This document shows positions 3,705 to 54,704 of a stretch of DNA of 64,000 nucleotides, piece by piece. The first letter of the stretch is position 1. Each line of letters opens with the position of its first letter. The stretch comes from Candidatus Staskawiczbacteria bacterium (GTDB lineage Bacteria; Patescibacteriota; Minisyncoccia; Minisyncoccales; Staskawiczbacteraceae), in contig CAIKWD010000026.1 in assembly GCA_903831095.1 (NCBI GenBank), positions 136,477 through 200,476 on the forward strand, given 5' to 3'. A model generated the notes under the pieces. That model was not told where the DNA came from, made no database searches, and saw only the letters and a program-made list of their open reading frames with translations. Made by a program: the position numbers and the translations under genes.

Positions 3705-3760
3705 AATACTTGCTTGTACATTAATAATCATGTAAAGTTAAATCAACAATTTAATAATTA

Positions 3761-3900
3761 GCCTAAACCCGCAGATTTATTTGTGGGCATGGTAATAAAA
3801 GTCCGATTAAGAATAGAGATCCCATCATGGGGTTTAGCTTAATCGGCCATACTTGGAAACTTGTATGAGAGACTTTGTCTCTACCTGTGGTGGGCTTTTT
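3761..3900 (+). ncRNA. Unclassified structured RNA motif, copy 1 (leader or sRNA ending in a U-tract)
   Basis: About 140 nt homologous to the reverse complement of 44420-44555, with compensatory helix changes. GAAA-capped and UUU/UUCG-capped hairpins. Ends GTGGTGGGCTTTTT. Confidence 0.45.
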
Positions 3901-3939
3901 GTTAAGCAAAATCCTTCTGCAGGTGAAAAGAGAAAATTT

Positions 3940-4797
3940 ATGGGAACAAGAAATATAGAAAATCGACGTCAGGAGACTGACGAAAATGAGGGTGGAAATA
4001 TGGAATCTGTCTGGGGTAATATTACTCCAGATTATAATAGCCCGGATTTTGAAAAGAAATTTCAAACTGTGCTTGAGTCAAATTCTAAATTTCCTGGTCA
4101 ACTTATTAAAATATTAGATGAATTGCGAGTTGTATATGGCGCAGAACGAGAAAATGCTTATTCCAAAGATGTCGAGAATTTTGGTAAAAAAAGCGGCGTT
4201 AGTAATGAAGACTGGCTTGAGTTAAAAATTGAAAAATATTCCAAACAGGCCTATGAAACATTGTTAAAATCGCCTGATGTTTCTAAGGAGCAATTAATTC
4301 AATCAATCACATTCAAGGATTACATGTTTGATGATGGAGCATCACTTGTTGCCGAAAAATTAGGTACAGAAGCTAAAGACAACAAAGAAAGGATTGAACT
4401 TATTGTCTCTATGAAGGATCGTCTTCCTTATTCAATATCTGTAATTGCTGATCAACTAATGGAAAATAGTGCAACAAAAGGTGAAATAGCGGAAGCAATA
4501 AAATCTATAGCTTGTCCATATGCGGCGGGCGAAGCATTAAATACCCTTTTAACTGGTTTTTTGAAATTAGAAGATACTTCCGTAGATGATGTAAAAGAAA
4601 TTTTTAAGTCACCAGGGATCAATAGTTATCTTGCCCGTAACTCTATATTTGATGAAGCAACTGATAAAAAACAAGCACTTCAATCTGTTAATGCTTTTTT
4701 CCGAAAGGAACATTTTTACAGCGTTGAACAGCGTATTGCTATGGCAGAACATGTAGATGAAGAGAATAAGCCCAAAAAATCAACAAAGAGATATTAA
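3940..4797 (+). CDS. Hypothetical helical protein
   Basis: Long ORF. The track start at 3853 lies inside the RNA motif, so ATG 3940 is used. ATG 4000, preceded by GAGGGTGGA, is an equally plausible start. Confidence 0.55.
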   Translation: MGTRNIENRRQETDENEGGNMESVWGNITPDYNSPDFEKKFQTVLESNSKFPGQLIKILDELRVVYGAERENAYSKDVENFGKKSGVSNEDWLELKIEKYSKQAYETLLKSPDVSKEQLIQSITFKDYMFDDGASLVAEKLGTEAKDNKERIELIVSMKDRLPYSISVIADQLMENSATKGEIAEAIKSIACPYAAGEALNTLLTGFLKLEDTSVDDVKEIFKSPGINSYLARNSIFDEATDKKQALQSVNAFFRKEHFYSVEQRIAMAEHVDEENKPKKSTKRY

Positions 4798-9887: not shown

Positions 9888-11897
9888 ATGAGTCTATTAT
9901 TATTTCCGATAATCGTATCGCTATTTGCGATAGCATTTGTATGGTTTCTGGTTACGCAAATCAAGCGCGCGCCAGTTGCTGGAGACAAGGCAATTGCAAT
10001 TACAGCAGCAGTTCAGGAGGGTGCTATGTCTTACTTAAAAAGGCAGTACAAGACAATTGCTATAGTGGGAATAGTTTTGTTTTTACTTCTTTTACTCCCA
10101 ATTCAGGGTTTTGGATGGAAAGTTGCCATTGGGTTTTTAATTGGAGCAGTTTTAAGCGGAGTTTCAGGATTTATTGGAATGATAGTTTCTACACAAGCCA
10201 ATACCAGAGTTGCCGAAGCCGCCAGAAAAGGTATGGCAAAAGCTTTAGATATTGCTTTTAAAGGAGGTTTAATAACGGGTTTAATGGTTGTAAGCTTGGG
10301 ATTATTGGCAGTTTCAGGATATTATATGTTAACTAAAGACATTAATGGATTAATTGGCTTGGGTTTTGGAGCTTCATTAATATCCGTCTTTGCCAGAGTT
10401 GGTGGAGGCATTTATACAAAAGCTGCAGACGTAGGAGCTGACTTGGTAGGTAAGGTTGAAAAAGGAATACCTGAAGATGATCCAAGAAATCCAGCAGTTA
10501 TAGCAGATCAAGTTGGAGACAACGTTGGAGACTGTGCAGGAATGGCAGCAGATATTTTTGAAACTTATGCAGTTACAACTGTTGCTACAATGATTTTGGC
10601 CAGCTTATTATTTCCAAACTCAGTACCAGCAATTATGTTGCCTTTAATATTGGGAAGCGTAGCTATTTTAGCCTCTATAATTGGAAGCTTTTTTGTAAGG
10701 CTCGGCAAAAAGCAGAATATAATGGGATCTATGTACAAGGGTTTGGCTGCAACAGTTATTTTATCTGCAGGTGCTTTCTTGCCTATTATTCTAAAGTATA
10801 TGCCTACGTTGTATATTTCAGGCAGGACAATTACCCCAATACAGCTTTATTTTTCTACAATAGTTGGTTTGGTAATTGCTATTGGAATGTTTGTGATTAC
10901 AGAATGGTACACTTCAAAAGATTACAGCCCAGTCAAATCTATTGCCAAAGCCAGTGAAACAGGACACGCTACAAACATAATAAGGGGATTGGGAATTGGA
11001 ATGCAGTCTACAGCTTACCCAGTTTTGCTTATAGCTTTAGGAACAATTGTAAGCTTCTGGTTAGCTGGCATTTACGGAGTGGCGCTGGCTGTTATGGCAA
11101 TGCTTTCAATTTCGGGAATAGTTGTAGGAGTTGACGCTTATGGTCCAATTACAGACAACGCCGGAGGAATTGCAGAAATGTCTGGAATGCCAGAAGATGT
11201 TAGAAAAATTACCGATGCTTTGGATGCAGTTGGAAACACAACAAAAGCAGTTACAAAAGGATACGCCATTGCTTCTGCTGGATTAGCGGCCTTGGTTTTA
11301 TTTTCAGCATACGTTCAAGAAGTTGGTGGAAAGGGAGTTATAGATTTCTCTTTAACAAATGCTCAAGTTATCGCAGGACTTTTAATTGGAGGATTGCTTC
11401 CATATTTATTTGCTTCATTTTTAATGGGAGCTGTTGGAAAAACAGCTGGAAAAGTTGTTGATGAAGTTAGAAGACAATTCCGCGATATTAAAGGATTAAT
11501 GGAAGGAACTGCCAAACCAGAATACGGAAAAGCAGTTGATATTGTTACAAAAGCAGCAATTAAAGAAATGATGATACCAGCTTTGTTGCCAATCGTAGCT
11601 CCAATATTAGTTGGAAAGATTTTGGGAGTTGAAGCTTTAGGAGGGATGTTAATTGGAGCAATTGTGACAGGATTGTTTGTTGGAATTTCAATGACAACAG
11701 GAGGTGCAGCTTGGGACAACGCCAAAAAATATATTGAGGGCGGAGCATTTGGAGGCAAGGGAGGTGATGCTCACAAAGCAGCAGTTACAGGAGATACAGT
11801 TGGTGACCCATATAAAGACACAGCAGGGCCAGCTATTAACCCTATGATCAAAGTGCTCAACATTGTCGCTTTGCTTATTGTCGCATTCTTAATTTAG
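9888..11897 (+). CDS. hppA: Membrane-bound proton/sodium-translocating pyrophosphatase
   Basis: 669 aa, polytopic. [18 protein letters not shown] and [17 protein letters not shown] are signature H+-PPase motifs. Confidence 0.9.
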
Positions 11898-11908
11898 TAC
11901 TAAAATTC

Positions 11909-11938
11909 AAAGACCGCCGAAAGGCGGTCTTTTGTTTT
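11909..11938. terminator. Hairpin terminator between convergent hppA and glnA
   Basis: AGACCGCC-GAAA-GGCGGTCT followed by TTTGTTTT. Confidence 0.7.
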
Positions 11939-12019
11939 AGAAAATTTATAATTAAAAAATAAATAATAAAAAAGGAGAAGCGTTAAGCTTCTCTTTTGTT
12001 TTATATGTTTGCTAAAATT

Positions 12020-13402
12020 CTACAGATATTTTTTTATGTCCCAGTCGGTGACCGACTGGCTGTGTTCTCTCCAATTTTTCATGCCAAGCATGAACAGAGT
12101 ATCAATGATGAAATCTCCCATTCCTTTTCTGAGCATTTTGCTTTTCTGAGTTAGTAAAAGGGCTTCAGCAAGGTTTCCCGGTAACTCTTCTACGCCGTCG
12201 TGGTCGTGGTAGAGGTTTCTTTTATCAGGAGGGGAGAGCTTCAAATTTTGTTCAATTCCGGCCAGTCCTGCCAAAAGCAAAGCGGAAAACCCTAGGTAAG
12301 GGTTACACATTGGGTCGGGAGCCCTGTATTCTACTCTGACCTTTGTGGTTCCTTTTGAGTGACCTCTGCAAAGTGCCGTCCTATTGAGCCAGTCCCACGA
12401 AATTCGTGTGGGCGCTTCTGCTCCCGGAACAAGACGCTTGTAGCTTATTGTCGTCGAGTTGGTTAAGGAGGTTACTTCATCTGCGTACTTTAGAAGTCCT
12501 GCAATGAATTTTTTCCCTAAGTCAGAAAGTCCGTCTGGCTTTCTTGGGTCATAAAATAGGTTAACCTCTTTTCCATCAATAACACCAGAGATGTTTATAT
12601 GCACATGCATTCCACTACCGTTTACATTTTGGTTAAATTTTGGAATGAAGGACGCTCTCAGACTATTTTTTTCAGCCACTGTGCTGATAATGTCCTTGGC
12701 AGTCATGGTTCCATCGGCAATACGCAAAACATTGCCGTGTCCTATACCAATTTCGCATTGGTACGTAGCAACTTCGGTATGGAACTTCTCTTTTTTAAGC
12801 GCAACTACTCCCAAATGGCGAGTAATTGTCTTTAGGGTTTCATTGACCCGGCTTTCTGGAGGAACAAAATAATGGTCGTTCTTCAGGTTGGGGTCAAGAT
12901 GGATATTGGAGGCGTCGTATTCTGCTGGCAAAAGTAAAAACTCGAGTTCTGGCGCAAAAAGCGCTTTTACTCTTGAGATTTTCATTTTTGGATGTTGCCT
13001 TTTTATAAGGTTTTCCATCTTTTTTACAACTTGTTTGAGAATGCCCCGACTGCAACCTTTAAAAGGTTTAAGTGTGTCACCCTCTTTTTCAGCAGGATGA
13101 AAAACATCGCAGATTACCTGCGCCGTGTCTGGTGACCATGGAACCATAAAAAGAGTCGAAGTGTCTGGGACAAGAACCATGTCACTTTCAGTAGGGGGAA
13201 TTATCTTCCCGAATACTGAAGATCCGTCAACAGTGGTAATTCCAGTGCTGCCAATCTGTTCTTTGGTAACGGTTACTTCACGGAGATTACCTGCAATGTC
13301 AGTCAACTGACACCGCATAAATTCAACATTTTTGTTCTTTTCGAAGAAATCGGCAAAAACCGTTTTCCTGTTGTTTGCTTCTTTAGCGCCTGCTTTTTTC
13401 AT
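12020..13402 (-). CDS. glnA: Glutamine synthetase
   Basis: 460 aa with NGSGMHVHINIS, the beta-grasp N-terminus (QLTDIAGNLREV) and a RVEYRAPDPMCNPYL region. Confidence 0.85.
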   Translation of the reverse strand: MKKAGAKEANNRKTVFADFFEKNKNVEFMRCQLTDIAGNLREVTVTKEQIGSTGITTVDGSSVFGKIIPPTESDMVLVPDTSTLFMVPWSPDTAQVICDVFHPAEKEGDTLKPFKGCSRGILKQVVKKMENLIKRQHPKMKISRVKALFAPELEFLLLPAEYDASNIHLDPNLKNDHYFVPPESRVNETLKTITRHLGVVALKKEKFHTEVATYQCEIGIGHGNVLRIADGTMTAKDIISTVAEKNSLRASFIPKFNQNVNGSGMHVHINISGVIDGKEVNLFYDPRKPDGLSDLGKKFIAGLLKYADEVTSLTNSTTISYKRLVPGAEAPTRISWDWLNRTALCRGHSKGTTKVRVEYRAPDPMCNPYLGFSALLLAGLAGIEQNLKLSPPDKRNLYHDHDGVEELPGNLAEALLLTQKSKMLRKGMGDFIIDTLFMLGMKNWREHSQSVTDWDIKKYL

Positions 13403-22007: not shown

Positions 22008-22081
22008 TGGAGCAGGTAAGGGGAGTCGAACCCCTCTCATTAGCTTGGAAAGCTAAGGTAATACCGATATACGATACCTGC
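22008..22081 (-). tRNA. tRNA-Gly(UCC), CCA encoded
   Basis: Cloverleaf folded by hand. Acceptor GCAGGTA/TACCTGC, anticodon loop TTTCCAA, T-loop TTCGACT. Confidence 0.85.
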
Positions 22082-22082
22082 G

Positions 22083-22157
22083 TGGTGCCCTCGGTTGGAA
22101 TCGGACCAACATCTAAATCTTAGAAGGATCTTGTTCTATCCATTGAACTACGAGGGC
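22083..22157 (-). tRNA. tRNA-Arg(UCU), CCA encoded
   Basis: Acceptor GCCCTCG/CGAGGGC, anticodon loop CTTCTAA. Lies 1 nt from tRNA-Gly. Confidence 0.85.
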
Positions 22158-22676: not shown

Positions 22677-22747
22677 CGGGGTGTGGTGTAATGGTAACAC
22701 GAACGCTTTGGGAGCGTTTGTTTCGAGTTCGAGTCTCGACACCCCGA
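22677..22747 (+). tRNA. tRNA-Pro(UGG)
   Basis: Acceptor CGGGGTG/CACCCCG, anticodon loop TTTGGGA, T-loop TTCGAGT. Confidence 0.85.
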
Positions 22748-22768
22748 CAAGTTTTAGGAAAAATTTAT

Positions 22769-22841
22769 GGCGGCTATGGTGTAATGGTTAGCACAGGACT
22801 CTGTGGCAGTCCCAGTACGGGTTCGAATCCCGTTAGCCGCC
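22769..22841 (+). tRNA. tRNA-His(GUG) with G-1
   Basis: Extra 5' G, acceptor GCGGCTA/TAGCCGC, anticodon loop CTGTGGC, discriminator C. Confidence 0.85.
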
Positions 22842-29197: not shown

Positions 29198-29269
29198 GCC
29201 CCCGTCGTTCAATGGATAGGACGGAAGTTTCCTAAACCTCAAATATAGGTTCGATTCCTATCGGGGGCA
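29198..29269 (+). tRNA. tRNA-Arg(CCU)
   Basis: Acceptor GCCCCCG/CGGGGGC, anticodon loop TTCCTAA (one A-C mismatch in the anticodon stem), T-loop TTCGATT. Confidence 0.8.
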
Positions 29270-31048: not shown

Positions 31049-31389
31049 TGGAGGAGTCGCATATCCCGCGTAGCGGGACCCCGCTTCGCGGGGGTGGCTT
31101 CATTATTTATGTTTACAACGTATATTCTAAAAAGTTTAAAAACCGGACGATACTATATTGGACAAACGGAAGATATTGTAGATAGAATTAAAAGGCATAA
31201 TTCGGGGCGGTCTAAAGCTACAAAAAATTCTATGCCTTGGGAGCTTATTTATTCCGAAGAATATTCAACCAGATCTTTAGCTTTTAGGAGAGAACAGGAA
31301 ATAAAATCATATAAAGGTGGTATAAAGTTTAAAAAGTTGCTAGGTTTATGGAAAGATAATTAAATCAATATTTTTGGAGGAGTCGCATA
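31049..31389 (+). mobile_element. GIY-YIG cassette bounded by a 15-bp direct repeat of the tRNA-Ser 5' end
   Basis: TGGAGGAGTCGCATA occurs at 31049-31063 and 31375-31389. Two GC-rich hairpins (CCCGC-GTA-GCGGG, CCCCGC-TTC-GCGGGG) follow the first copy. Confidence 0.5.
31109..31363 (+). CDS. GIY-YIG nuclease family protein (UPF0213-like)
   Basis: YILKSLKTGRYYIGQTEDIVDRIKRHNSG...TKNSMPWELIYSEEY...REQEIKSYKG. ATG 31109 is preferred over GTG 31094. Confidence 0.8.
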   Translation: MFTTYILKSLKTGRYYIGQTEDIVDRIKRHNSGRSKATKNSMPWELIYSEEYSTRSLAFRREQEIKSYKGGIKFKKLLGLWKDN

Positions 31390-31460
31390 GTGGCTATTGC
31401 AACGGTTTCGAAAACCGTAATCCCTTACGGGATTCGTGAGTTCGAGTCTCACCTCCTCCG
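31376..31460 (+). tRNA. tRNA-Ser(CGA)
   Basis: Acceptor GGAGGAG/CTCCTCC, anticodon loop TTCGAAA, long variable arm, T-loop TTCGAGT. Confidence 0.85.
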
Positions 31461-38474: not shown

Positions 38475-38546
38475 GGCACGGTAGCAAAGTAGTAATGCAC
38501 TTCTCTGCAAAAGAAGTATACGTGAGTGCGATTCTCACCCGTGCCT
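38475..38546 (+). tRNA. tRNA-Cys(GCA)
   Basis: Acceptor GGCACGG/CCGTGCC, anticodon loop CTGCAAA. Confidence 0.85.
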
Positions 38547-38566
38547 CAAAATTAGTAAAATATTAT

Positions 38567-38652
38567 GCCCGAGTGGTGGAATGGTATACACGAAGGACTT
38601 AAAATCCTTTGAGGGAAACTTCATGCGGGTTCGACTCCCGCCTCGGGCACCA
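38567..38652 (+). tRNA. tRNA-Leu(UAA), CCA encoded; integration target
   Basis: Acceptor GCCCGAG/CTCGGGC, anticodon loop CTTAAAA, long variable arm, T-loop TTCGACT. Confidence 0.88.
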
Positions 38653-42583: not shown

Positions 42584-43597
42584 CTAGTAATAGTTCTCTA
42601 CGGTAACTGAATAATCACTATTCCAGTTACTTAGATGGAGATAATATTGTCCTGGAGGCAACGAGTATTCGTTGAAGGTTTTACTTATTGGGCAATCGAC
42701 TGTTGTAGCAAAATTATCACTTTGAGGATAGGGCTGGCTTGGGTCGGTTGCCTCAATAATTCCGTTAAACCATCCAGCATTCAGGCTAGAATCAGATGTG
42801 GTGCAACTATATGTAATTCTTGATTGATTACCTCTTAAAGAAAAAGATGTAGTGTTGTTTCCTGAGGTGTCACTATACGAAAAAGCTGTGTGCCAAGTAG
42901 CAAGTGTGTTGCAAGTACCGTTACTACAGGTTTGGCTTGAATTGCAGGTTTGCTGTAGCTGCTGAGTTTTACTGTTTGAGCAATAAGATTGTAGAGTGCC
43001 TGCTTTATTGCAAATATAAGTTATATAATTTTGGTAAACTGCATTATTCTGACAAGAGGGGCTTCCTGTTAGGGCATTAGTACCGCACTGGTTATCAGTA
43101 GAACAACTAATACTCGCGACTGGAGTAGGTGTCGGCGTGGGTTGGGTTGTGGCAGGTTGTTGAGTAGGTATTGTTTTTTTTGCTTTTGTTGCAGGTAACT
43201 GTATTTGTGTCCATGTGCCACAATTTTTAGATTGGAAACCTTTATCAGTTGAAGATATGGTTACGATAGCTGAAGTATCGGTATTTTCATTATCGATAAT
43301 ATCTGCACTGGTTCCTCCAAAACCGCTAAGTCTCGCATAATAACAATTTGACCCACCTGAATTGCGATAGGTACCAGATTGAATGTCGGTTCCAACAATG
43401 TATGTTCCATCACCGAATGATGTTAATGGAGATTTTGGAACAGACGCTGACTGAGTTGGAGTTGGTGCTGATGTAGGCGATGGAGTAGAGCCTTGATTTC
43501 CGGCGTTCGCGATAATAATTATAAAAATTACCACTAATGCCCAAAACCACCAGCGTGTATAGAATTTCTTTTTAGGTTCTTCTGTTTGATTTTCCAT
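42584..43597 (-). CDS. Membrane-anchored secreted protein with Pro/Thr linkers and a Cys-rich module
   Basis: N-terminal TM helix, PTPT-rich linkers and repeated C-x-C motifs. Confidence 0.6.
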   Translation of the reverse strand: MENQTEEPKKKFYTRWWFWALVVIFIIIIANAGNQGSTPSPTSAPTPTQSASVPKSPLTSFGDGTYIVGTDIQSGTYRNSGGSNCYYARLSGFGGTSADIIDNENTDTSAIVTISSTDKGFQSKNCGTWTQIQLPATKAKKTIPTQQPATTQPTPTPTPVASISCSTDNQCGTNALTGSPSCQNNAVYQNYITYICNKAGTLQSYCSNSKTQQLQQTCNSSQTCSNGTCNTLATWHTAFSYSDTSGNNTTSFSLRGNQSRITYSCTTSDSSLNAGWFNGIIEATDPSQPYPQSDNFATTVDCPISKTFNEYSLPPGQYYLHLSNWNSDYSVTVENYY

Positions 43598-43641: not shown

Positions 43642-44382
43642 CTATTGAGTAATCGTCGTCCAATCAGTGCATTGAAAATTATCGCTTAAACTTGATCCAG
43701 TAAGGATTGTGGTATTCATACTGCCGTGAAGACACTTGTTGGTTCGAGTAACACTGATAACAGGAACCCAAATATTCCTACTAATAAATGCATTTGTTTG
43801 AGAAAGCGACTGGCTCAACACTCCGGTGCCATATACCTGAAGGAATTGTAGTATAGGGCTACTTTTATCTTGAAGACTAGCAACCGCGGAAGTATATGTT
43901 GCACTATCATCAATCTCGAGCATCATCTCTGGCTGAGAAGGGTCAAATGGATTGATGATTTCAATATAATTACTATTTCCCCCTCTACCGCCTTTAGGTA
44001 AAAAACTATTGACCATACCAATCATAGAAATGGTTTTACCAAGATAAGCTCCAGGATTAGAACTGTATAACTCAAAGGAAACGGGGGTGTAAACCGAATA
44101 GTCTATGGATAATGAACTTGTTTGCGGGGCAGGAGTTAACACGGGCAAAGTAGGTGTGATAACCGTGGGCGTTGTATTTTCAGAAACCGACGGCACAGGT
44201 TGCGTAGTTGCTTTTTGAGCCAATATTTGCTGTATTTGTTGCTCCAATTGTGCAATCATTTGAGTAAGCAACTGGATTAGTTGTTGGGTTAATTGTGCCT
44301 GGGTTGATACGGTTTGTGCTGTTGCAAAAACGGGCATTATTAAAAATGATGCCAAGACTAACGAGATTAAAAGTTTTTTCAT
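43642..44382 (-). CDS. Secreted protein with Gln-rich coiled segment
   Basis: Signal peptide ...VFATAQ and a QLTQQLIQLLTQMIAQLEQQIQQILAQ segment. Confidence 0.6.
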   Translation of the reverse strand: MKKLLISLVLASFLIMPVFATAQTVSTQAQLTQQLIQLLTQMIAQLEQQIQQILAQKATTQPVPSVSENTTPTVITPTLPVLTPAPQTSSLSIDYSVYTPVSFELYSSNPGAYLGKTISMIGMVNSFLPKGGRGGNSNYIEIINPFDPSQPEMMLEIDDSATYTSAVASLQDKSSPILQFLQVYGTGVLSQSLSQTNAFISRNIWVPVISVTRTNKCLHGSMNTTILTGSSLSDNFQCTDWTTITQ

Positions 44383-44419
44383 ATTTTTAATTTTTTACCA
44401 GAGGAAGGATTTTTTACAC

Positions 44420-44555
44420 AAAAAGCCCACCACGGGTAGAGACCGAAGTCTCTCATATAGGTTTCCCTATACGGCGATCAAACACAACCCCATGATGGGT
44501 TCTTTATGTTTGATCGTCTTTAGTGCCATGCCCATAGATAACTATGAGTTTAGGC
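44420..44555 (-). ncRNA. Unclassified structured RNA motif, copy 2
   Basis: Homologous to 3761-3900. Contains a C(UUCG)G-capped hairpin and a GAAA-capped hairpin. Ends GTGGTGGGCTTTTT about 35 nt before ATG 44382. Confidence 0.45.
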
Positions 44556-44634
44556 GAATTATTAAATTGTTATTTCAATTATGCCTTTAAAATGTTAAAT
44601 AATCAACAAAATAGATAATATTTAGTGACAATCA

Positions 44635-49542: not shown

Positions 49543-52500
49543 ATGGAAGATGATATTAAAGAAAAATTACTTAAAGAATACACAGGGAAAGAGCCCTTAT
49601 ATATAGAGTTTGCCAAGGAGACAGAAAAATTGCTTAAGGCTTTTTTAGATGGGCAAGATTTTAAATTCTATATTTATAACAGGGCTAAAGAGATGTGTAA
49701 TCTTTCTGAAAAGATTGATAGGAAAGAACAAGAAGGGAAACAGTATGCAAAATTAGAAGACATTGAAGACTTGGCAGGAGTAAGAGTCGTCTTTTATTTA
49801 GAAAGCGACAAGAAGCGGTTTTTAAATCTATTTTTAAGTGAATTCCGTAATTGCATTATTTCTCATGAAGAAAAATATATTTCTAAAGGATATAGGGGAT
49901 CTCATATTATTTTTCACTTAGACGATAAGAGATCGACACCAGCTGAATATCAAAAATATAAGGGGCTTAAATGTGAAATACAAATATTAACAATTCTATT
50001 TCATGCTTGGTCCGAAGTTGAGCATGATATTATTTATAAGCCGAAGGGAGATGCAATACTTCTTAGAACATTGGGGTTGGATGAACTCGAAAAAACTTTT
50101 GAAAAATTGATGGCAGAACATATTCAAGCGGCGACTATCCAGCTTGATTGTATTAATAAAAAATATGAGGAAATAAGACGGGCTGGAGAAATATTAAGCG
50201 TTGATTTTATTAATGATATTATCAATTCAAAAACTAATGACGAAATTTATGAGAGATTAGAAGTAATAGAAAAATTTTATTATAAAAAACCAGATGAAAC
50301 ATTAGTAATTGTTGAAACAGTGCTGAAACAGAAACCATTGGAGCCAGCAGTAATCTACCAGTTTAAGGATAGTCCACTTTATGGCAAGACGCACAAAGAC
50401 ATTGTTTTAAAAGCAATCGACTTGCTCTCATCAATCAGATATTATAAATCAGATGAAGTTTTGGATTTGCTCTCTGTTCTGTCTTTGTCTGAAGATAACG
50501 ATATAAAAAATAAGGCCCTGGATATTGCGAAGAAGTTTGCAAAGTACGATTTTAATATTCTTACTAAGTCAAAAATTGGATATGGAGCACAAAGAAAATC
50601 CCTTGATTATATTTTATCATGGCCGGGAGCAAAAAAAATTGAAAACTTCGATTTTATAGAAGTGATAACGCAAGAACTTCTGGGATCATCAGTTGAAGGG
50701 ACGACGTCTGGGATAAATGCAGAAGCACAATATACTATAACATTACACTCTAATGTTGTTCAGCCGACTGTTTTCTTAAAAAAGATTCGTCGCGACACCA
50801 TTGATTTAATATTTAATCTTTATGAGAACATAAACGACGAAAAGAAAAAGATAAGATTAGTAAGAGTTCTTGAAGAGGTCATAAGAACACCAAGCAGTGT
50901 GGCCTATGGTGAAGATATAGAAAACATGATTAGTGATGATGCTCAATATTTAACAAATATCTATCGAAGTATGCTTTTTAAGGAAGGCAAGCTAGTTGGC
51001 AGTATTTCCGTTGCCGAGGAGATAGAAGAAAGACTCTACTGGTTCCATAAAAATGGAAAACTAAATACGCCAGAATCTAAAAAATTGAGAGAAGATATCT
51101 TAGCAGATTCTTTTTATTCTGTATTTCGTTTATTTGCTGGCGATGATGTTATTTTTCGTGAAGAAGAGGGCTGGGATAAGGCAGAATCAAAACGTAATAA
51201 AGCTATTGATACTAAAATTGGGGAGGTTAACGAATCTAATTTAACTGAGTGGATTAATGTTATCAACAGAATTGCAGACCAAATTGGTTTGGTGGATGAG
51301 TGGAAGTTTAGCCCCTTTAAAATGTTTTTAAGAAAATTAACAGTTAAACAACCAGAGACAGCCTCAATCATACTTAATAATGCTATAGATAATAATGAAT
51401 CAATTAAAATTCTTACAAGGGATATTTTAGATGGTTTTCGTGATGCTGATCGTCTTGATCTATGGGATGCAATTACAGAAAAAATAATAAAGAAGGAAGA
51501 AACTAGTTTGATAGGTTCAATAATATACTCGCTTAATATTGGTAGAGAGGGAGTTGATCTAACAAAAGAAATTCGGGATCAAGATTTAATATTACTTGAA
51601 GACGTTGTAAAACAAACTGGGAAGTTTTCTTTTCTCGCTAATAAGAAAGAAAATAATTTGGTTTTACAACACGCAATTATTAACACCCTTATAAGTAATT
51701 TTAAACGTGATCCTGCTCGTATTGAAGCTCTTATATTAGAAATGATTCGAAAAAATCAAGGCAGGGAAAAATTTCTTATTAGAGAACTAGAATTCGGGAC
51801 TATGAGGTCCATGATTGATTGTAGTGAATTTGGTACAGATAGTATTAATCTTCTAAAATCATCACTTGTAGAATTAGATGATTTAGATTGGAATGCACAA
51901 GGCCTATTATTAAATCTCGGCAAAAAGAATGTGAGAATAATTTTTGATGTATTATGGGATAGGATTGAGAAAGATGTTCAAAAAAAAGAGAGCAAAGGTT
52001 TTGATGGATTAGAACACTATCGGGCAATTCCTTATCATTTCAACGATGATCTTAAAAAACATCTTTTTGCTTGTCCACAATTTCAAGTTTTAGCTGAAGA
52101 ATGGCTCGACAAGGTTACACTTACTTGGTCACCATATAATTGGAATATTAGCCATTTTCTTAAAGAAATAGGCAATTCTTTAACAGTTATACTTAAAAGT
52201 ATGATTGAACGTGGGGATGAGAATAGTTTAACTAAAGCTGTACAGCTAATGGACCGTTTTGAGGGAGGTGATATTGAATTAGGCATAGAGGTAATTAGAA
52301 GAACCAAGAATAAGAAAAATATAAGCCATATTGAGGGGATGTTATTTTCCACTGGTGTTGTCTCTGGAGAAGATGGAATCGCACGTACCTATGAATCTAA
52401 GGCAGAGATATTAAAGAAGTACTTAAACGATGACAATAAGCAAGTAAAATCATTTGCCGAGAAAATGAGTAAAATCCTTGAGGAAAATGCAAAAAGAGAA

Positions 52501-52554
52501 CGACAACAAAATGAGGAAGAAAAACAAATAAGAAAAATAGAGTTTGAGGAGTAG
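49543..52554 (+). CDS. RelA/SpoT-domain (RSH, small-alarmone-synthetase-like) nucleotide pyrophosphokinase fused to a ~830-aa helical C-terminal region
   Basis: aa 45-170: NRAKE...KIDRK...IEDLAGVRVVFY...KGYRGSHIIFHL...KCEIQILTILFHAWSEVEHDIIYKP matches the RelA_SpoT synthetase fold. The remainder is Leu/Ile/Glu/Lys-rich and apparently helical. Confidence 0.8.
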   Translation: MEDDIKEKLLKEYTGKEPLYIEFAKETEKLLKAFLDGQDFKFYIYNRAKEMCNLSEKIDRKEQEGKQYAKLEDIEDLAGVRVVFYLESDKKRFLNLFLSEFRNCIISHEEKYISKGYRGSHIIFHLDDKRSTPAEYQKYKGLKCEIQILTILFHAWSEVEHDIIYKPKGDAILLRTLGLDELEKTFEKLMAEHIQAATIQLDCINKKYEEIRRAGEILSVDFINDIINSKTNDEIYERLEVIEKFYYKKPDETLVIVETVLKQKPLEPAVIYQFKDSPLYGKTHKDIVLKAIDLLSSIRYYKSDEVLDLLSVLSLSEDNDIKNKALDIAKKFAKYDFNILTKSKIGYGAQRKSLDYILSWPGAKKIENFDFIEVITQELLGSSVEGTTSGINAEAQYTITLHSNVVQPTVFLKKIRRDTIDLIFNLYENINDEKKKIRLVRVLEEVIRTPSSVAYGEDIENMISDDAQYLTNIYRSMLFKEGKLVGSISVAEEIEERLYWFHKNGKLNTPESKKLREDILADSFYSVFRLFAGDDVIFREEEGWDKAESKRNKAIDTKIGEVNESNLTEWINVINRIADQIGLVDEWKFSPFKMFLRKLTVKQPETASIILNNAIDNNESIKILTRDILDGFRDADRLDLWDAITEKIIKKEETSLIGSIIYSLNIGREGVDLTKEIRDQDLILLEDVVKQTGKFSFLANKKENNLVLQHAIINTLISNFKRDPARIEALILEMIRKNQGREKFLIRELEFGTMRSMIDCSEFGTDSINLLKSSLVELDDLDWNAQGLLLNLGKKNVRIIFDVLWDRIEKDVQKKESKGFDGLEHYRAIPYHFNDDLKKHLFACPQFQVLAEEWLDKVTLTWSPYNWNISHFLKEIGNSLTVILKSMIERGDENSLTKAVQLMDRFEGGDIELGIEVIRRTKNKKNISHIEGMLFSTGVVSGEDGIARTYESKAEILKKYLNDDNKQVKSFAEKMSKILEENAKRERQQNEEEKQIRKIEFEE

Positions 52555-52659
52555 TCTCTTTTGTCTGTTCTTGATTATAGAATATTTTAGAGTTAAGATA
52601 AATTACAATTTAATATTGATTGAGTTGCCTAAAACCCTAAAAAGTCATGGCACAAAATT

Positions 52660-52803
52660 CCTAAGAATAATACCGAACACGTCGTTCAGGCCTCTTATTC
52701 TTAGGTCGTATATCGAAAGATGTACGGGAGAGCAATCTCCGGCTTGGCGGCGTGTTCCGTGTTTACAGACTCAACACACTAGCCATAAAAAGCTGGTTTT
52801 TTG
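52660..52803 (+). ncRNA. Candidate structured 5' leader RNA
   Basis: An 11-bp stem CCTAAGAATAA/TTATTCTTAGG, hairpin CGTATATC-GAAA-GATGTACG, hairpin GGAGA-GCAA-TCTCC, and a weak terminator-like hairpin with T6 ending 18 nt before ATG 52821. Local GC is well above the flanks. Confidence 0.35.
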
Positions 52804-52820
52804 TTTATAAAAACAAAACT

Positions 52821-54704
52821 ATGAAAAAACAATTTATATTTCTCGTTATTTTTTCTCTTATAATTTTAGGTTATGCATTTCCGCTGTTCGCAAGGGCTGA
52901 GACATTGCCAGTATGTGTGGCAACTGACTGGTCATGCACTGATTGGGGTGCTTGCCATGCAGATGGCAACTATTTTCAAAATAGAACTTGTAGTAAAACA
53001 GCAAATTGTGAAGGGGGAGTTGCGTCGCCTTCAACCCAACAAATATGTACACCACCCTTCTGTACTTCATGGACATATTCTGATTGGGGTCCTTGCGATC
53101 CTAATCTTGGGTATAAACAGAGAACTGAAATTTCTGCTTTTCCTACGGACTGCATAATCGACTATACAAATGGCCCTGGCCCTATAGATAGGCAGACGTG
53201 TAGTGTTTTCCCGGCATGTACTTCAGGCGATTGGTCATGTGCTGATTGGACCGCATGTTCGCAAAATAATAACCAAACAAGAACTTGTAGTAAAATCTCA
53301 AATTGCCAAGGTGGTGTTGTTTCCCCCGCGACTTCGCAGACTTGTACTTATACTCCAACATGTATTTCATTTGGTTACTCCATATGGTCAGTCTGTTCAT
53401 CTAACGGAACTCAAACGAGAAGTGTTGTCTCAACATTGCCTAGCAGTTGTATCGGAGGTAATCCGGTTTTGACCCAGAGTTGTAGCTATATTAAGCCCGC
53501 TAAATCCTTAGATCAACAATGTAAGGATTATTATGGTGCTAACTACGCATGGAATGACAATAGCGGTAAATGTATCAACCTTGTGGCCCCGCAATCAAAT
53601 TGTACTGCCGACACGTGGACTTGTGGTGCGTGGGGTACTTGTTCACCGCAAGGAATTCAAACAAGGAGTTGCAACAAAACCTATGATTGTTCGTCTGCAG
53701 AGACCGCAGTACCTGTTACAACGCAATACTGTCAGCCCTCCAGCAGCCCCATATATCAAAGTCCAGCAGATACTCAAAATGTTACAAACCAAGGATCGAT
53801 AATAAAAGCAACAGTAAAACTTAAGTGTTGGGTCACTTTAGCTGGTGGCAGAGCGGGGTCCGGTACAATAATAGATTCTGAAGGAATAATACTTACCAAT
53901 AAACATTTGATTACCAACGAAAAAGGGGTAATTGATGTGTCGGGTTGCCATATTGGGTTTATTAACTCTTACAAAGATATACCATATTTTGATGATAGTG
54001 GGAGTGGACATTTTGCAGATATTTATAAGGTGTCTACGAACGAAGATATCGTCTTACTAAAATTAAGAAATCCAAATAATAAGATTCTTCCATCAATAGA
54101 TATTTCAAAGGGAAACAACAACAATTTAAAACTCACTGACGAATTAATTATTTATGGCTATCCCGGAATTGGAGGGGACACTATAACAGTTACGAAGGGA
54201 TATTATAATGGCATAAGAGAAAATTACTTAAAAACCGATGCACTTATCGCACATGGTAATTCAGGAGGAGGGGCATACACCACAAATGGTATATTTATGG
54301 GAATACCAACAGGAGCAATCCCTGACGATATTACTCATCTTGGTTATGTTTTGTCTGTAAATACAATCAATTCCTGGATAAATAATACTCCGGTTGTATA
54401 TTCTCCACTCGACATAAATAATTATTCACGGGTTGCTTCAATATTGGAAAACATGACAGTAGATCAAATAGATAAATTTAAGATATATGCGCCCGGCACT
54501 GAACCAACGAGTTTATCCCAAGATAATGAAAATGTTGTTCCTAAAACTATAAAAAGTTCTACACCACCAATAACTAATCAAAAAATAGAGCCAAATCAGA
54601 TTGCCATGATATTTGGGGCCGGAACCACCCAGCAAGCTAGTCCAGCACTAACCAAAAAAATAACATGGTATCAAAAAATATGGGATTGGTTTATGAGAAA
54701 ATGA
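52821..54704 (+). CDS. Secreted protein: five thrombospondin-type-1-like Cys repeats + trypsin-like (S1) serine protease domain
   Basis: Signal peptide MKKQFIFLVIFSLIILGYAFPLFARA. Repeats W..C..W..C...G.Q(T/N)R.C lie at 52914-53731. Protease triad context: TNKHLI, DIVLLKL, HGNSGGGAY. Confidence 0.75.
   Translation: MKKQFIFLVIFSLIILGYAFPLFARAETLPVCVATDWSCTDWGACHADGNYFQNRTCSKTANCEGGVASPSTQQICTPPFCTSWTYSDWGPCDPNLGYKQRTEISAFPTDCIIDYTNGPGPIDRQTCSVFPACTSGDWSCADWTACSQNNNQTRTCSKISNCQGGVVSPATSQTCTYTPTCISFGYSIWSVCSSNGTQTRSVVSTLPSSCIGGNPVLTQSCSYIKPAKSLDQQCKDYYGANYAWNDNSGKCINLVAPQSNCTADTWTCGAWGTCSPQGIQTRSCNKTYDCSSAETAVPVTTQYCQPSSSPIYQSPADTQNVTNQGSIIKATVKLKCWVTLAGGRAGSGTIIDSEGIILTNKHLITNEKGVIDVSGCHIGFINSYKDIPYFDDSGSGHFADIYKVSTNEDIVLLKLRNPNNKILPSIDISKGNNNNLKLTDELIIYGYPGIGGDTITVTKGYYNGIRENYLKTDALIAHGNSGGGAYTTNGIFMGIPTGAIPDDITHLGYVLSVNTINSWINNTPVVYSPLDINNYSRVASILENMTVDQIDKFKIYAPGTEPTSLSQDNENVVPKTIKSSTPPITNQKIEPNQIAMIFGAGTTQQASPALTKKITWYQKIWDWFMRK

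Follow-up and report, generated by a model that had tools for sequence, protein, structure and literature searches.

LOOT RNAs ahead of three genes in a Staskawiczbacteria contig: a covarying 3' pseudoknot and a possible role as cis-acting leaders

What kind of RNA is encoded in diverged form at two sites, 40 kb apart, on one contig of a member of the Candidate Phyla Radiation (CPR), and what might it do there? The stretch in question, called the window here, is 64,000 nucleotides (nt) of contig CAIKWD010000026.1 (positions 136,477 to 200,476, forward strand; assembly GCA_903831095.1) from Candidatus Staskawiczbacteria bacterium. An initial annotation, made from its letters alone, had described a structured RNA motif of about 140 nt at 3761-3900 (+) and again, on the opposite strand, at 44420-44555. 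The motif was taken to be either a leader with a pseudoknot or alternative pairing or a small RNA (sRNA) ended by a terminator, and to fit none of SRP RNA, tmRNA, RNase P, 6S, and the common riboswitch classes. We identified it as LOOT RNA, whose name refers to the lineages OD1, OP11, and TM7, and found a third copy in the window. Few conserved structured RNAs are specific to CPR/Patescibacteria, a vast group of bacteria of which hardly any have been cultivated, and LOOT is one of them.

Three LOOT RNAs and their conserved core

The whole window was scanned with cmscan against Rfam 15 at gathering thresholds, and three matches to LOOT (RF03000; gathering score 46.4 bits, model of 121 positions) were obtained. 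Copy 1 matched at 3760-3882(+) with 71.9 bits (E 1.5e-11), copy 2 at 44556-44438(-) with 84.1 bits (E 2e-14), and copy 3 at 52626-52740(+) with 69.0 bits (E 7e-11). Each match covered model positions 1-121 of 121, and all three were untruncated and above the gathering score. The initial annotation had itself named a match to a known Rfam family as an outcome that would refute it, and with the full-length LOOT matches the element is not an unrecognized motif. Its two copies were confirmed, and a third, at 52626-52768(+), had been overlooked. When copies 1 and 2 (3761-3900(+) and the reverse complement of 44420-44555) were compared in a global alignment, 110 of 141 columns were identical, and the resulting 78.0% is slightly higher than the 70-75% that had been estimated by eye. 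Copy 3 is more diverged, with 56-58% identity to copies 1 and 2. A pattern of conserved-core features matched the window three times and 100 shuffles of it not once. In a permissive Rfam scan of the window (E up to 0.5), no fourth LOOT copy was found, and no competing family came near its gathering threshold at the three loci; no Rfam riboswitch model matched these loci in the gathering-threshold scan or the permissive one. These results demonstrate that the three elements are members of LOOT RNA. The element as such is thus an already known family, and the motif is not new.

LOOT entered Rfam 14 through the Weinberg/Breaker alignments (PMC7779021), which accompany a 2017 survey of candidate structured RNAs (PMC5737381). 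It has since been cited merely as an example in work on covariation (PMC7657543; PMC11701678). In a search of the literature that took in the main text of the discovery paper, no paper assigning it a function was found.

A species-representative genome collection was then scanned for homologues with a pattern of core features, which yielded at least 118 loci. Five pattern matches were dropped as non-LOOT, three of them by eye (L087, L103, and L116) and two from the alignment (L043 and L048). The 113 distinct LOOT sequences that were kept, the window's three included, provided the further homologues that the initial annotation had called for, and all family-wide figures given below hold among the matches listed. 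Covariation was counted on a MAFFT alignment of 115 sequences that was fitted to no structure and in which copy 2 served as the reference row.

The window copies share the architecture of the LOOT family. In all three, GCCUAAA is followed by CAUGGNANNAAA, which together give helix P1 with its CCUAAAC...GCAUGG internal loop, the P1a hairpin, and an A-rich linker; a long P2 comes next, then P3 with its GAAA loop and, directly after P3 in every copy, the abutting P4. As had been claimed, the unpaired blocks TGGGCATGG, CCCATCATGGGG, and GTGGTGGGCTTTTT are invariant between copies 1 and 2, and the substitutions that separate these copies are paired so that the helices are kept. In P1a a C-G pair of copy 1 is a U-A pair in copy 2, P2a reads CCGAUUAAG/CUUAAUCGG versus CGAUCAAAC/GUUUGAUCG with two double changes, and P3 reads CAUACUUG-GAAA-CUUGUAUG versus CGUAUAGG-GAAA-CCUAUAUG. 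P4 reads GAGAC-UUU-GUCUC in copy 1 versus GAGAC-UUCG-GUCUC in copy 2. Two of the strings quoted in support of this point were misread, since the sequence has GACGATCAAAC and GTTTGATCGCC where GCGATCAAAC and GTTTGATCGT had been given; the point itself is unaffected. Across the homologues, P1 was paired in 99.7% of cases, P1a in 89.7% with double changes in all seven of its pairs, and P3 in 97.2% with an invariant GAAA loop, and 984 double-change cells were counted over the structure versus 368 in shuffles. The basal helix of P2, P2a, is preserved in each window copy and carries compensatory changes. The apical hairpin that Rfam draws on top of it was paired in 59% of homologues versus 54.7% in shuffles, and cmscan flagged it as non-canonical in all three window copies.

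The P1 internal loop resembles a known tertiary contact. The 11-nt GAAA tetraloop receptor of the Tetrahymena P4-P6 domain has the sequence CCUAAG/UAUGG (bioRxiv 10.1101/2024.03.11.584472), and the LOOT loop, CCUAAA/CAUGG, differs from it at one position per strand, with A/C in place of the closing G-U wobble. The loop was among the features by which the homologues were retrieved, and it is present in all three window copies. This resemblance, and it is a resemblance only, suggests that the P1 loop and the invariant GAAA loop of P3 may form a tertiary dock.

Pairing of apical P2 with the 3' tail

The Rfam model ends at P4 (3882, 44438, and 52740 in copies 1, 2, and 3, respectively), and a conserved tail extends past it. 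The initial annotation had proposed a pseudoknot of 8 bp involving this tail. The pairing proved real and covarying, and longer than proposed: the entire apical part of P2 can form some 17-20 bp with the G/U-rich 3' tail and its U-tract. When the apical P2 of each of the 113 sequences was paired with its own tail, the mean duplex energy was -26.9 kcal/mol, versus -18.0 kcal/mol with the tails of other RNAs, and a sequence's own tail was in the best 10% for 92 of the 113 (binomial p 4e-71). The apical sequence of copy 3 is wholly unlike those of copies 1 and 2 and yet is complementary to its own tail.

The alignment showed the same relation column by column. An 11-bp GC-rich helix within the pseudoknot was paired in 88.2% of cases (115 sequences), with double changes in 10 of its 11 pairs; one pair of columns, as an example, was CG in 43 sequences, GC in 32, AU in 23, and UG in 12. 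The adjoining helix between a purine tract and the U-tract was paired in 84.3%, and 5 of its 6 pairs showed double changes. When the 3' partners were slid by 1-3 columns, pairing fell to 38-46%, and for the structure as a whole none of 500 shuffles attained the observed values. On the evidence of these covarying columns, the predicted pseudoknot exists and covaries across more than 100 homologues, and it is a better fit to the apical P2 nucleotides than the apical hairpin of the Rfam model.

The pseudoknot also bears on which strand is transcribed. The segment CCCAUCAU pairs with GUGGUGGG by way of G-U pairs, which on the opposite strand would become A-C mismatches. Across the 113 homologues these columns are mostly U-G, with the G in the tail, and the transcribed strand is therefore fixed, in agreement with the assignment that the initial annotation had made from G-U pairs in the two copies.

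Leader position, a second tail partner, and possible function

Each window copy is preceded by a promoter-like site (Table 1), after which ACAAUUUAAUA is found. The site of copy 2 lies 7 nt ahead of ACAAUU at 44570. That of copy 1 is a weak match to the consensus, was unlisted by the promoter scan, and was placed from the profile of the homologues. A 5' leader of 14-22 nt, outside the Rfam model, begins with ACAAUU, and ACAAUUnA is conserved in the window at 3746-3753, 44570-44563 (-), and 52605-52612. ACAAY was found 5-24 nt before GCCUAAA in approximately 70% of the homologues, and a strong -10-like hexamer stood 6-7 nt before ACAAY in 37 loci. When 78 loci were anchored on ACAAY, a TAtAAT-like profile appeared at -12..-7, with TT at -35/-34. 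From these sites and profiles we infer that each LOOT copy has its own sigma-70-like promoter and a predicted transcript start at ACAAUU. A pairing partner for the ACAAUU leader was not found in the 3' leader or in the LOOT body, as own-locus pairing was no better than other-locus pairing (own locus in the best 10% for 6 of 61 and 5 of 61, respectively).

The position of LOOT relative to genes is nearly constant. We searched for a same-strand, ATG-initiated open reading frame (ORF) of at least 40 codons that starts no more than 130 nt past the tail, and 107 loci had enough sequence for this. Such an ORF was present in 105 of the 107. Its distance from the tail had a median of 34 nt and was most often 30-39 nt, and the leader position upstream of a coding sequence that had been proposed from two copies is borne out for the family. 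In copy 1 the ATG is at 3940, 39 nt after the U-tract, and in copy 2 at 44382, 37 nt after it, both within the 35-100 nt noted initially. In copy 3 the ATG, at 52821, follows the tail by 57 nt and an ordinary terminator-like hairpin by 18 nt. No promoter-like site was found by the promoter scan between tail and ATG in the three window copies. DNA similarity to relatives spans the region from ACAAUU to the ATG and then ends; the match to L065, for example, is 89% over 198 nt, and the proteins encoded downstream are unrelated. From such comparisons, leaders and genes appear to have been shuffled among related genomes.

In addition to apical P2, the tail has a second potential partner, segment d, which lies between the tail and the ATG, a candidate for the alternative pairing that the initial annotation had anticipated. 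With the copy 1 tail, only 2 of 115 downstream segments paired more strongly than its own segment d, and a comparison of copy 1 with L065 (ACCCGUGG/CUAUGGGU) showed a compensatory change from C-G to U-A in the tail:d hairpin. The copy 3 tail paired with its downstream 45 nt at -18.4 kcal/mol, and 4 of 115 segments were stronger. With the copy 2 tail, 41 of 115 segments paired more strongly than its own. Over the family, the own downstream segment was in the best 10% for 30 of 115 RNAs, where 11.5 would be expected. The nested minimum-energy folds computed for copies 1 and 2 contain the tail:d hairpin.

We compared the predicted stability of the pseudoknot state and of a nested state, which combines the apical hairpin with the tail hairpin, by energy sums that are rough and carry no pseudoknot penalty. 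For the full leader the sums were -59.8 (pseudoknot) and -63.9 (nested) kcal/mol in copy 1, -65.8 and -64.5 in copy 2, and -77.4 and -69.9 in copy 3, so that in copies 1 and 2 the two states are within about 1-4 kcal/mol of each other. For RNAs cut at the tail they were -55.4 and -52.9 in copy 1, -63.7 and -55.8 in copy 2, and -61.1 and -54.2 in copy 3; the pseudoknot state is favored by 2.5-8 kcal/mol in transcripts of copies 1 and 2 that end at the tail.

The tail also has features suggestive of a terminator. In copy 1 a scan for terminator-like sites flagged TCTACCTGTGGTGGG followed by CTTTTTGTTA in the tail. The local hairpin before the U-tract of copies 1 and 2 has just 6 pairs, three of them G-U, and the stronger GC-rich helix ahead of the U-tract is the long-range pseudoknot. 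In copy 3, the 5' half of the separate terminator-like hairpin overlaps the segment that is able to pair with the tail.

A further relation was seen in a subset of loci. Of the 113, 23 loci, all of them outside the window, carry a downstream repeat of 9-15 nt from the P2a 5' strand, and in 17 of the 113 this repeat, exact and often with the preceding AAAA linker, ended within a few nt of the ATG (L001, L004, L010, L011, L018, L021, L026, L029, L033, L053, L061, L068, L085, L086, L095, L096, and L106). Repeats of such length occurred in about 1% of other-locus pairs. At these 17 loci the P2a 3' strand would thus have a second complement next to the start codon and could mask the ribosome-binding region. 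As a general account, sequestration of the start region was rejected: the own-locus excess was modest (-14.5 versus -12.4 kcal/mol) and came mainly from the P2a-repeat loci, not from the window copies. An upstream ORF running from the tail was rejected as well, as the possible TTG and GUG start codons behind the G-rich tail are not shared by copies 1 and 2.

Taken together, the best overall explanation, in which we have high confidence, is that the three elements are LOOT members that come with a predicted cis-leader mechanism, the latter being the far more tentative part. We give just under an even chance to the mechanism itself, in which LOOT would be a cis-acting leader or attenuator that toggles between pseudoknot and tail hairpin. 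LOOT would then be the 5' leader of the gene starting some 35-40 nt on, and its purine tract, GC-rich pseudoknot stem, and U-tract would have the layout of an intrinsic terminator. In a closed state, the pseudoknot would form as the tail emerges, transcription would stop, and an RNA of about 155 nt would be released. In an open state, the tail would pair with segment d, the polymerase would read through, and the gene would be expressed. In copy 3, the pseudoknot would free the separate terminator, and tail:d pairing would block it.

What could set such a switch was judged from the genes it precedes. The proteins led by LOOT fall into 74 blastp clusters for 107 proteins and 62 Pfam families for 106, a diversity not expected of a typical metabolite riboswitch, whose regulon is coherent. 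The invariant nucleotides are mostly those of the receptor-like loop, the GAAA loop, and the pseudoknot, which leaves little for a ligand pocket. A classical metabolite riboswitch is therefore disfavored, and control by a global signal, a protein, an ion, or kinetics would fit better. The wider proposal that LOOT is a CPR-specific riboregulator, in which a global signal, be it a second messenger, an ion, a protein, or a molecule that comes from a host, decides between pseudoknot closure and read-through, is possible but in our judgment doubtful. If it were true, dozens of unrelated envelope, secreted, and defense-type accessory genes would be under one control, and both the published secondary structure and the 'sRNA' label would need revision.

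The diversity of the genes and the shortage of spare invariant nucleotides count against a switching leader, and several other points weigh on the same side. A helix of 17-20 bp formed from the loop of an intact hairpin of 9-11 bp, with linkers of 0-6 nt, would be sterically difficult, and therefore P2a may not be able to form fully alongside the complete pseudoknot, or the two paired strands may belong to different molecules. The tail:d pairing, as judged by the comparisons of own with other segments, is moderately supported across the family and weak in copy 2. The energy sums for the two states are as rough as stated above, and the 5' and 3' ends of the transcript are predictions only. Finally, Rfam lists LOOT as 'Gene; sRNA', not as cis-regulatory (RF03000).

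That listing is in keeping with a stand-alone, trans-acting sRNA that has its own promoter, is ended by the pseudoknot and U-tract, and is functionally unrelated to the next gene. The promoter-like elements and conserved start sequence of LOOT's own, the U-rich tract behind a GC-rich helix, the extra canonical terminator between copy 3 and its gene, and the greater stability of the pseudoknot state in a transcript that ends at the tail would all be expected of such an RNA. An independent sRNA would not be expected to keep a nearly fixed position, however, and in 105 of 107 loci an ORF on the same strand begins past the tail, at a median of 34 nt; the gap between tail and ATG is too short for a separate promoter and contains no match to one. 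Conservation extends through these 35-40 nt to the ATG, the tail's conserved alternative partner lies within them, the P2a 5' strand is repeated at the start codon in 17 loci, and no conserved single-stranded seed region is apparent. We consider a stand-alone sRNA unlikely. A portable constitutive cassette of promoter plus leader, which would stabilize mRNA 5' ends or drive high expression of accessory genes and in which the pseudoknot would be a compact nuclease-resistant fold, seems to us quite improbable. It would account for near-identical leaders fused to unrelated genes in related genomes, for three copies within 64 kb, and for the accessory type of the genes (DUF4352, superinfection immunity, nucleases, DNA methyltransferases, and secreted proteases), and the receptor-like loop and GAAA loop suggest a rigid fold. 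Conversely, a conserved second partner for the tail and covariation between a purine tract and a terminator-like U-tract are more than a simple stabilizer needs, mobility is not indicated by any terminal repeats or target duplications, and there was no match in 2.9 million viral contigs.

It is scarcely credible that the similarity between copies reflects a repeat family, a small coding ORF such as a leader peptide, or chance. An ATG within the conserved CAUGG does open a short ORF in each copy (17 codons in copy 1, 20 in copy 2, and 5 in copy 3), and a 100-amino-acid ORF on the minus strand overlaps copy 1. The short ORFs are unlike in length and sequence, however, and a leader peptide from the CAUGG ATG was ruled out because their sequences are unrelated. 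Substitutions keep base pairs, not codons, as the excess of double-change cells (984 versus 368) indicates; the G-U pairs are strand specific; and the core pattern is absent from 100 shuffles. Coding, repeat, and chance origins were accordingly excluded by the Rfam matches, the shuffles, and the covariation. Phage origin of LOOT was dropped on the zero matches in the viral contig collection of 2.9 million contigs.

A cis-acting leader of the kind favored here can be set beside known systems. In preQ1, SAM-II, and fluoride riboswitches, the expression platform is a pseudoknot or a terminator. LOOT would likewise be a structured 5' leader domain whose 3' strand takes part in mutually exclusive pairings and is adjoined, in riboswitch-like manner, by a U-tract or at some loci by the ribosome-binding region. 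Unlike these classes, LOOT lacks a coherent regulon, its pseudoknot is far longer, and it belongs to no known riboswitch class. A second comparison is with raiA, ROOL, GOLLD, and OLE, conserved and elaborately folded orphan bacterial RNAs that came, like LOOT, from one and the same discovery program in comparative genomics (PMC12286853, PMC12968392). LOOT is likewise a conserved orphan RNA, but it is much smaller (about 150 nt), restricted to CPR, and tied to the start of an adjacent gene; no sign of multimeric assembly was seen for LOOT, and intermolecular pairing between loop and tail would be possible.

Compared with the Rfam model of LOOT, the analysis adds the ACAAUU 5' leader, the 3' tail pseudoknot in place of the apical hairpin, and the constant position as a gene leader, and the results suggest that the model be extended at both ends. 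These three features and the alternative pairing may be new, being undescribed in the papers compared, the main text of the discovery paper among them. With the pseudoknot, the near-fixed leader position, and the second tail partner, there is now a regulatory hypothesis for this orphan RNA that can be put to the test.

Downstream genes, distribution, and neighborhood

The features of the three loci are collected in Table 1.

Table 1. Features of the three LOOT loci, in window positions; 5' leaders, promoter-like sites, and pairings are predictions.
Feature	Position	Strand	Evidence or remark
Copy 1 promoter-like site: TTGCTT 3710-3715, 17-nt spacer, TAAAGT 3733-3738	3710..3738	+	by analogy
Copy 1 5' leader ACAAUUUAAUAAUU, predicted transcript start	3746..3759	+	outside Rfam model
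Copy 1 LOOT core	3760..3882	+	cmscan RF03000; helices read from sequence
Copy 1 P1	3761-3763/3791-3793	+	internal loop CCUAAA/CAUGG
Copy 1 P1a	3768-3775/3780-3787	+	
Copy 1 P2a	3803-3811/3838-3846	+	
Copy 1 pseudoknot 5' strand AAUAGAGAUCCCAUCAUGGG, apical P2	3812..3831	+	duplex with tail -24.2 kcal/mol
Copy 1 P3	3848-3855/3860-3867	+	GAAA loop 3856-3859
Copy 1 P4	3868-3873/3877-3882	+	
Copy 1 pseudoknot 3' strand CCUGUGGUGGGCUUUUUGUU, G/U-rich tail and U-tract	3884..3903	+	outside Rfam model
Copy 1 segment d AGCAAAAUCCUUCUGCAGGUG, alternative tail partner	3905..3925	+	duplex -20.7 kcal/mol
Copy 1 downstream gene, 285 amino acids	3940..4797	+	no Pfam match
Copy 2 promoter-like site: TTGATT 44606-44601, 17-nt spacer, CATAAT 44583-44578	44578..44606	-	promoter scan
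Copy 2 5' leader ACAAUUUAAUAAUU 44570-44557 and LOOT core 44556-44438	44438..44570	-	cmscan
Copy 2 pseudoknot 5' strand AUAAAGAACCCAUCAUGGG	44489..44507	-	duplex with tail -25.7 kcal/mol
Copy 2 pseudoknot 3' strand CCCGUGGUGGGCUUUUUGU, tail and U-tract	44418..44436	-	also in terminator-like scan
Copy 2 segment d AAAAAAUCCUUCCUCUGGUA, weaker alternative tail partner	44396..44415	-	duplex -12.2 kcal/mol
Copy 2 downstream gene, 246 amino acids, signal-peptide-like N-terminus	43642..44382	-	no Pfam match
Copy 3 promoter-like site: TTGATT 52571-52576, 17-nt spacer, TAAGAT 52594-52599	52571..52599	+	by analogy; unlisted by scan
Copy 3 5' leader ACAAUUUAAUAUUGAUUGAGUU 52605-52626 and LOOT core 52626-52740	52605..52740	+	cmscan
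Copy 3 P2a	52660-52670/52695-52705	+	
Copy 3 pseudoknot 5' strand ACCGAACACGUCGUUCAGGCC	52672..52692	+	duplex with own tail -32.2 kcal/mol
Copy 3 pseudoknot 3' strand GGCUUGGCGGCGUGUUCCGUGUU	52741..52763	+	
Copy 3 terminator-like hairpin ACUAGCCAUAAAAAGCUGGU, then UUUUUU	52778..52803	+	terminator scan; 18 nt before ATG
Copy 3 downstream gene, 627 amino acids, signal peptide and Trypsin_2	52821..54704	+	PF13365, E 2.6e-13

The most common Pfam families among proteins encoded downstream of LOOT were DUF4352 (11), DUF5067 (10), and superinfection immunity protein (5), followed by staphylococcal nuclease, bacterial PH domain, and zinc ribbons with three each; restriction-modification methyltransferases and Trypsin_2 were also present. 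The sole trend shared by these proteins was an N-terminal hydrophobic segment, which was found in 62% of them; among control ORFs taken from these loci, the share was 17% (Fisher p 1e-21). The genes led by LOOT are enriched for envelope and defense-type proteins. The exact protein encoded downstream of copy 2 was found on 17 short metagenome contigs. At L113, a LOOT of the copy 3 type stands ahead of a homologue of this gene.

The LOOT homologues were nearly all in bins labeled as CPR/Patescibacteria (Uhr-, Staskawicz-, Roizman-, Doudna-, and Saccharibacteria, Paceibacterota, and Minisyncoccia), and the closest DNA relatives of the LOOT loci of the window were in Staskawiczbacteria and Paceibacterota bins, which makes a CPR genome of the Parcubacteria type the very probable source of the window. 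When window positions 3738-3946 and 44375-44575 were compared with L065, L059, L063, L108, L015, and L023, the LOOT leader was the sole conserved DNA at these loci. The few non-CPR labels on LOOT loci are probably binning or labeling problems. L005, labeled Nanoarchaeia, and L016, from Uhrbacteria, have identical LOOT sequences and flanks. Many true LOOT loci were in bins titled uncultured Gammaproteobacteria or Sulfotelmatobacter, and L038 was likewise singled out. These cases (L005/L016, L038, and the loci with Gammaproteobacteria titles) are likely mis-binned contigs or placeholder labels and not LOOT outside CPR. No LOOT match was obtained in the viral contig collection mentioned above.

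Other features of the window were recorded alongside. Directly upstream of copy 3, 49543-52554 (+) encodes a protein of 1,003 amino acids that matched Pfam only once, at residues 47-168, where it has a RelA/SpoT nucleotidyltransferase domain. The gene that follows the one led by copy 2, at 42584-43597 (-), carries PF27111 (Rv1352-like) as a precomputed assignment in metagenome records, and our own Pfam scan of its product gave nothing at E up to 0.01. At 11795-12074, sub-threshold Rfam matches to the L20 leader, the Trp leader, and BSnc120 (E 0.02-0.18) were obtained on both strands. They sit in a 122-nt gap between convergent genes that has no inverted repeat of 14 nt or more, and they are probably due to chance or to a terminator region. 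The window also contains eight transfer RNA genes, several of them tightly paired, at 22011-22157 (-), 22677-22841 (+), 29198-29269, 31376-31460, and 38475-38649 (+).

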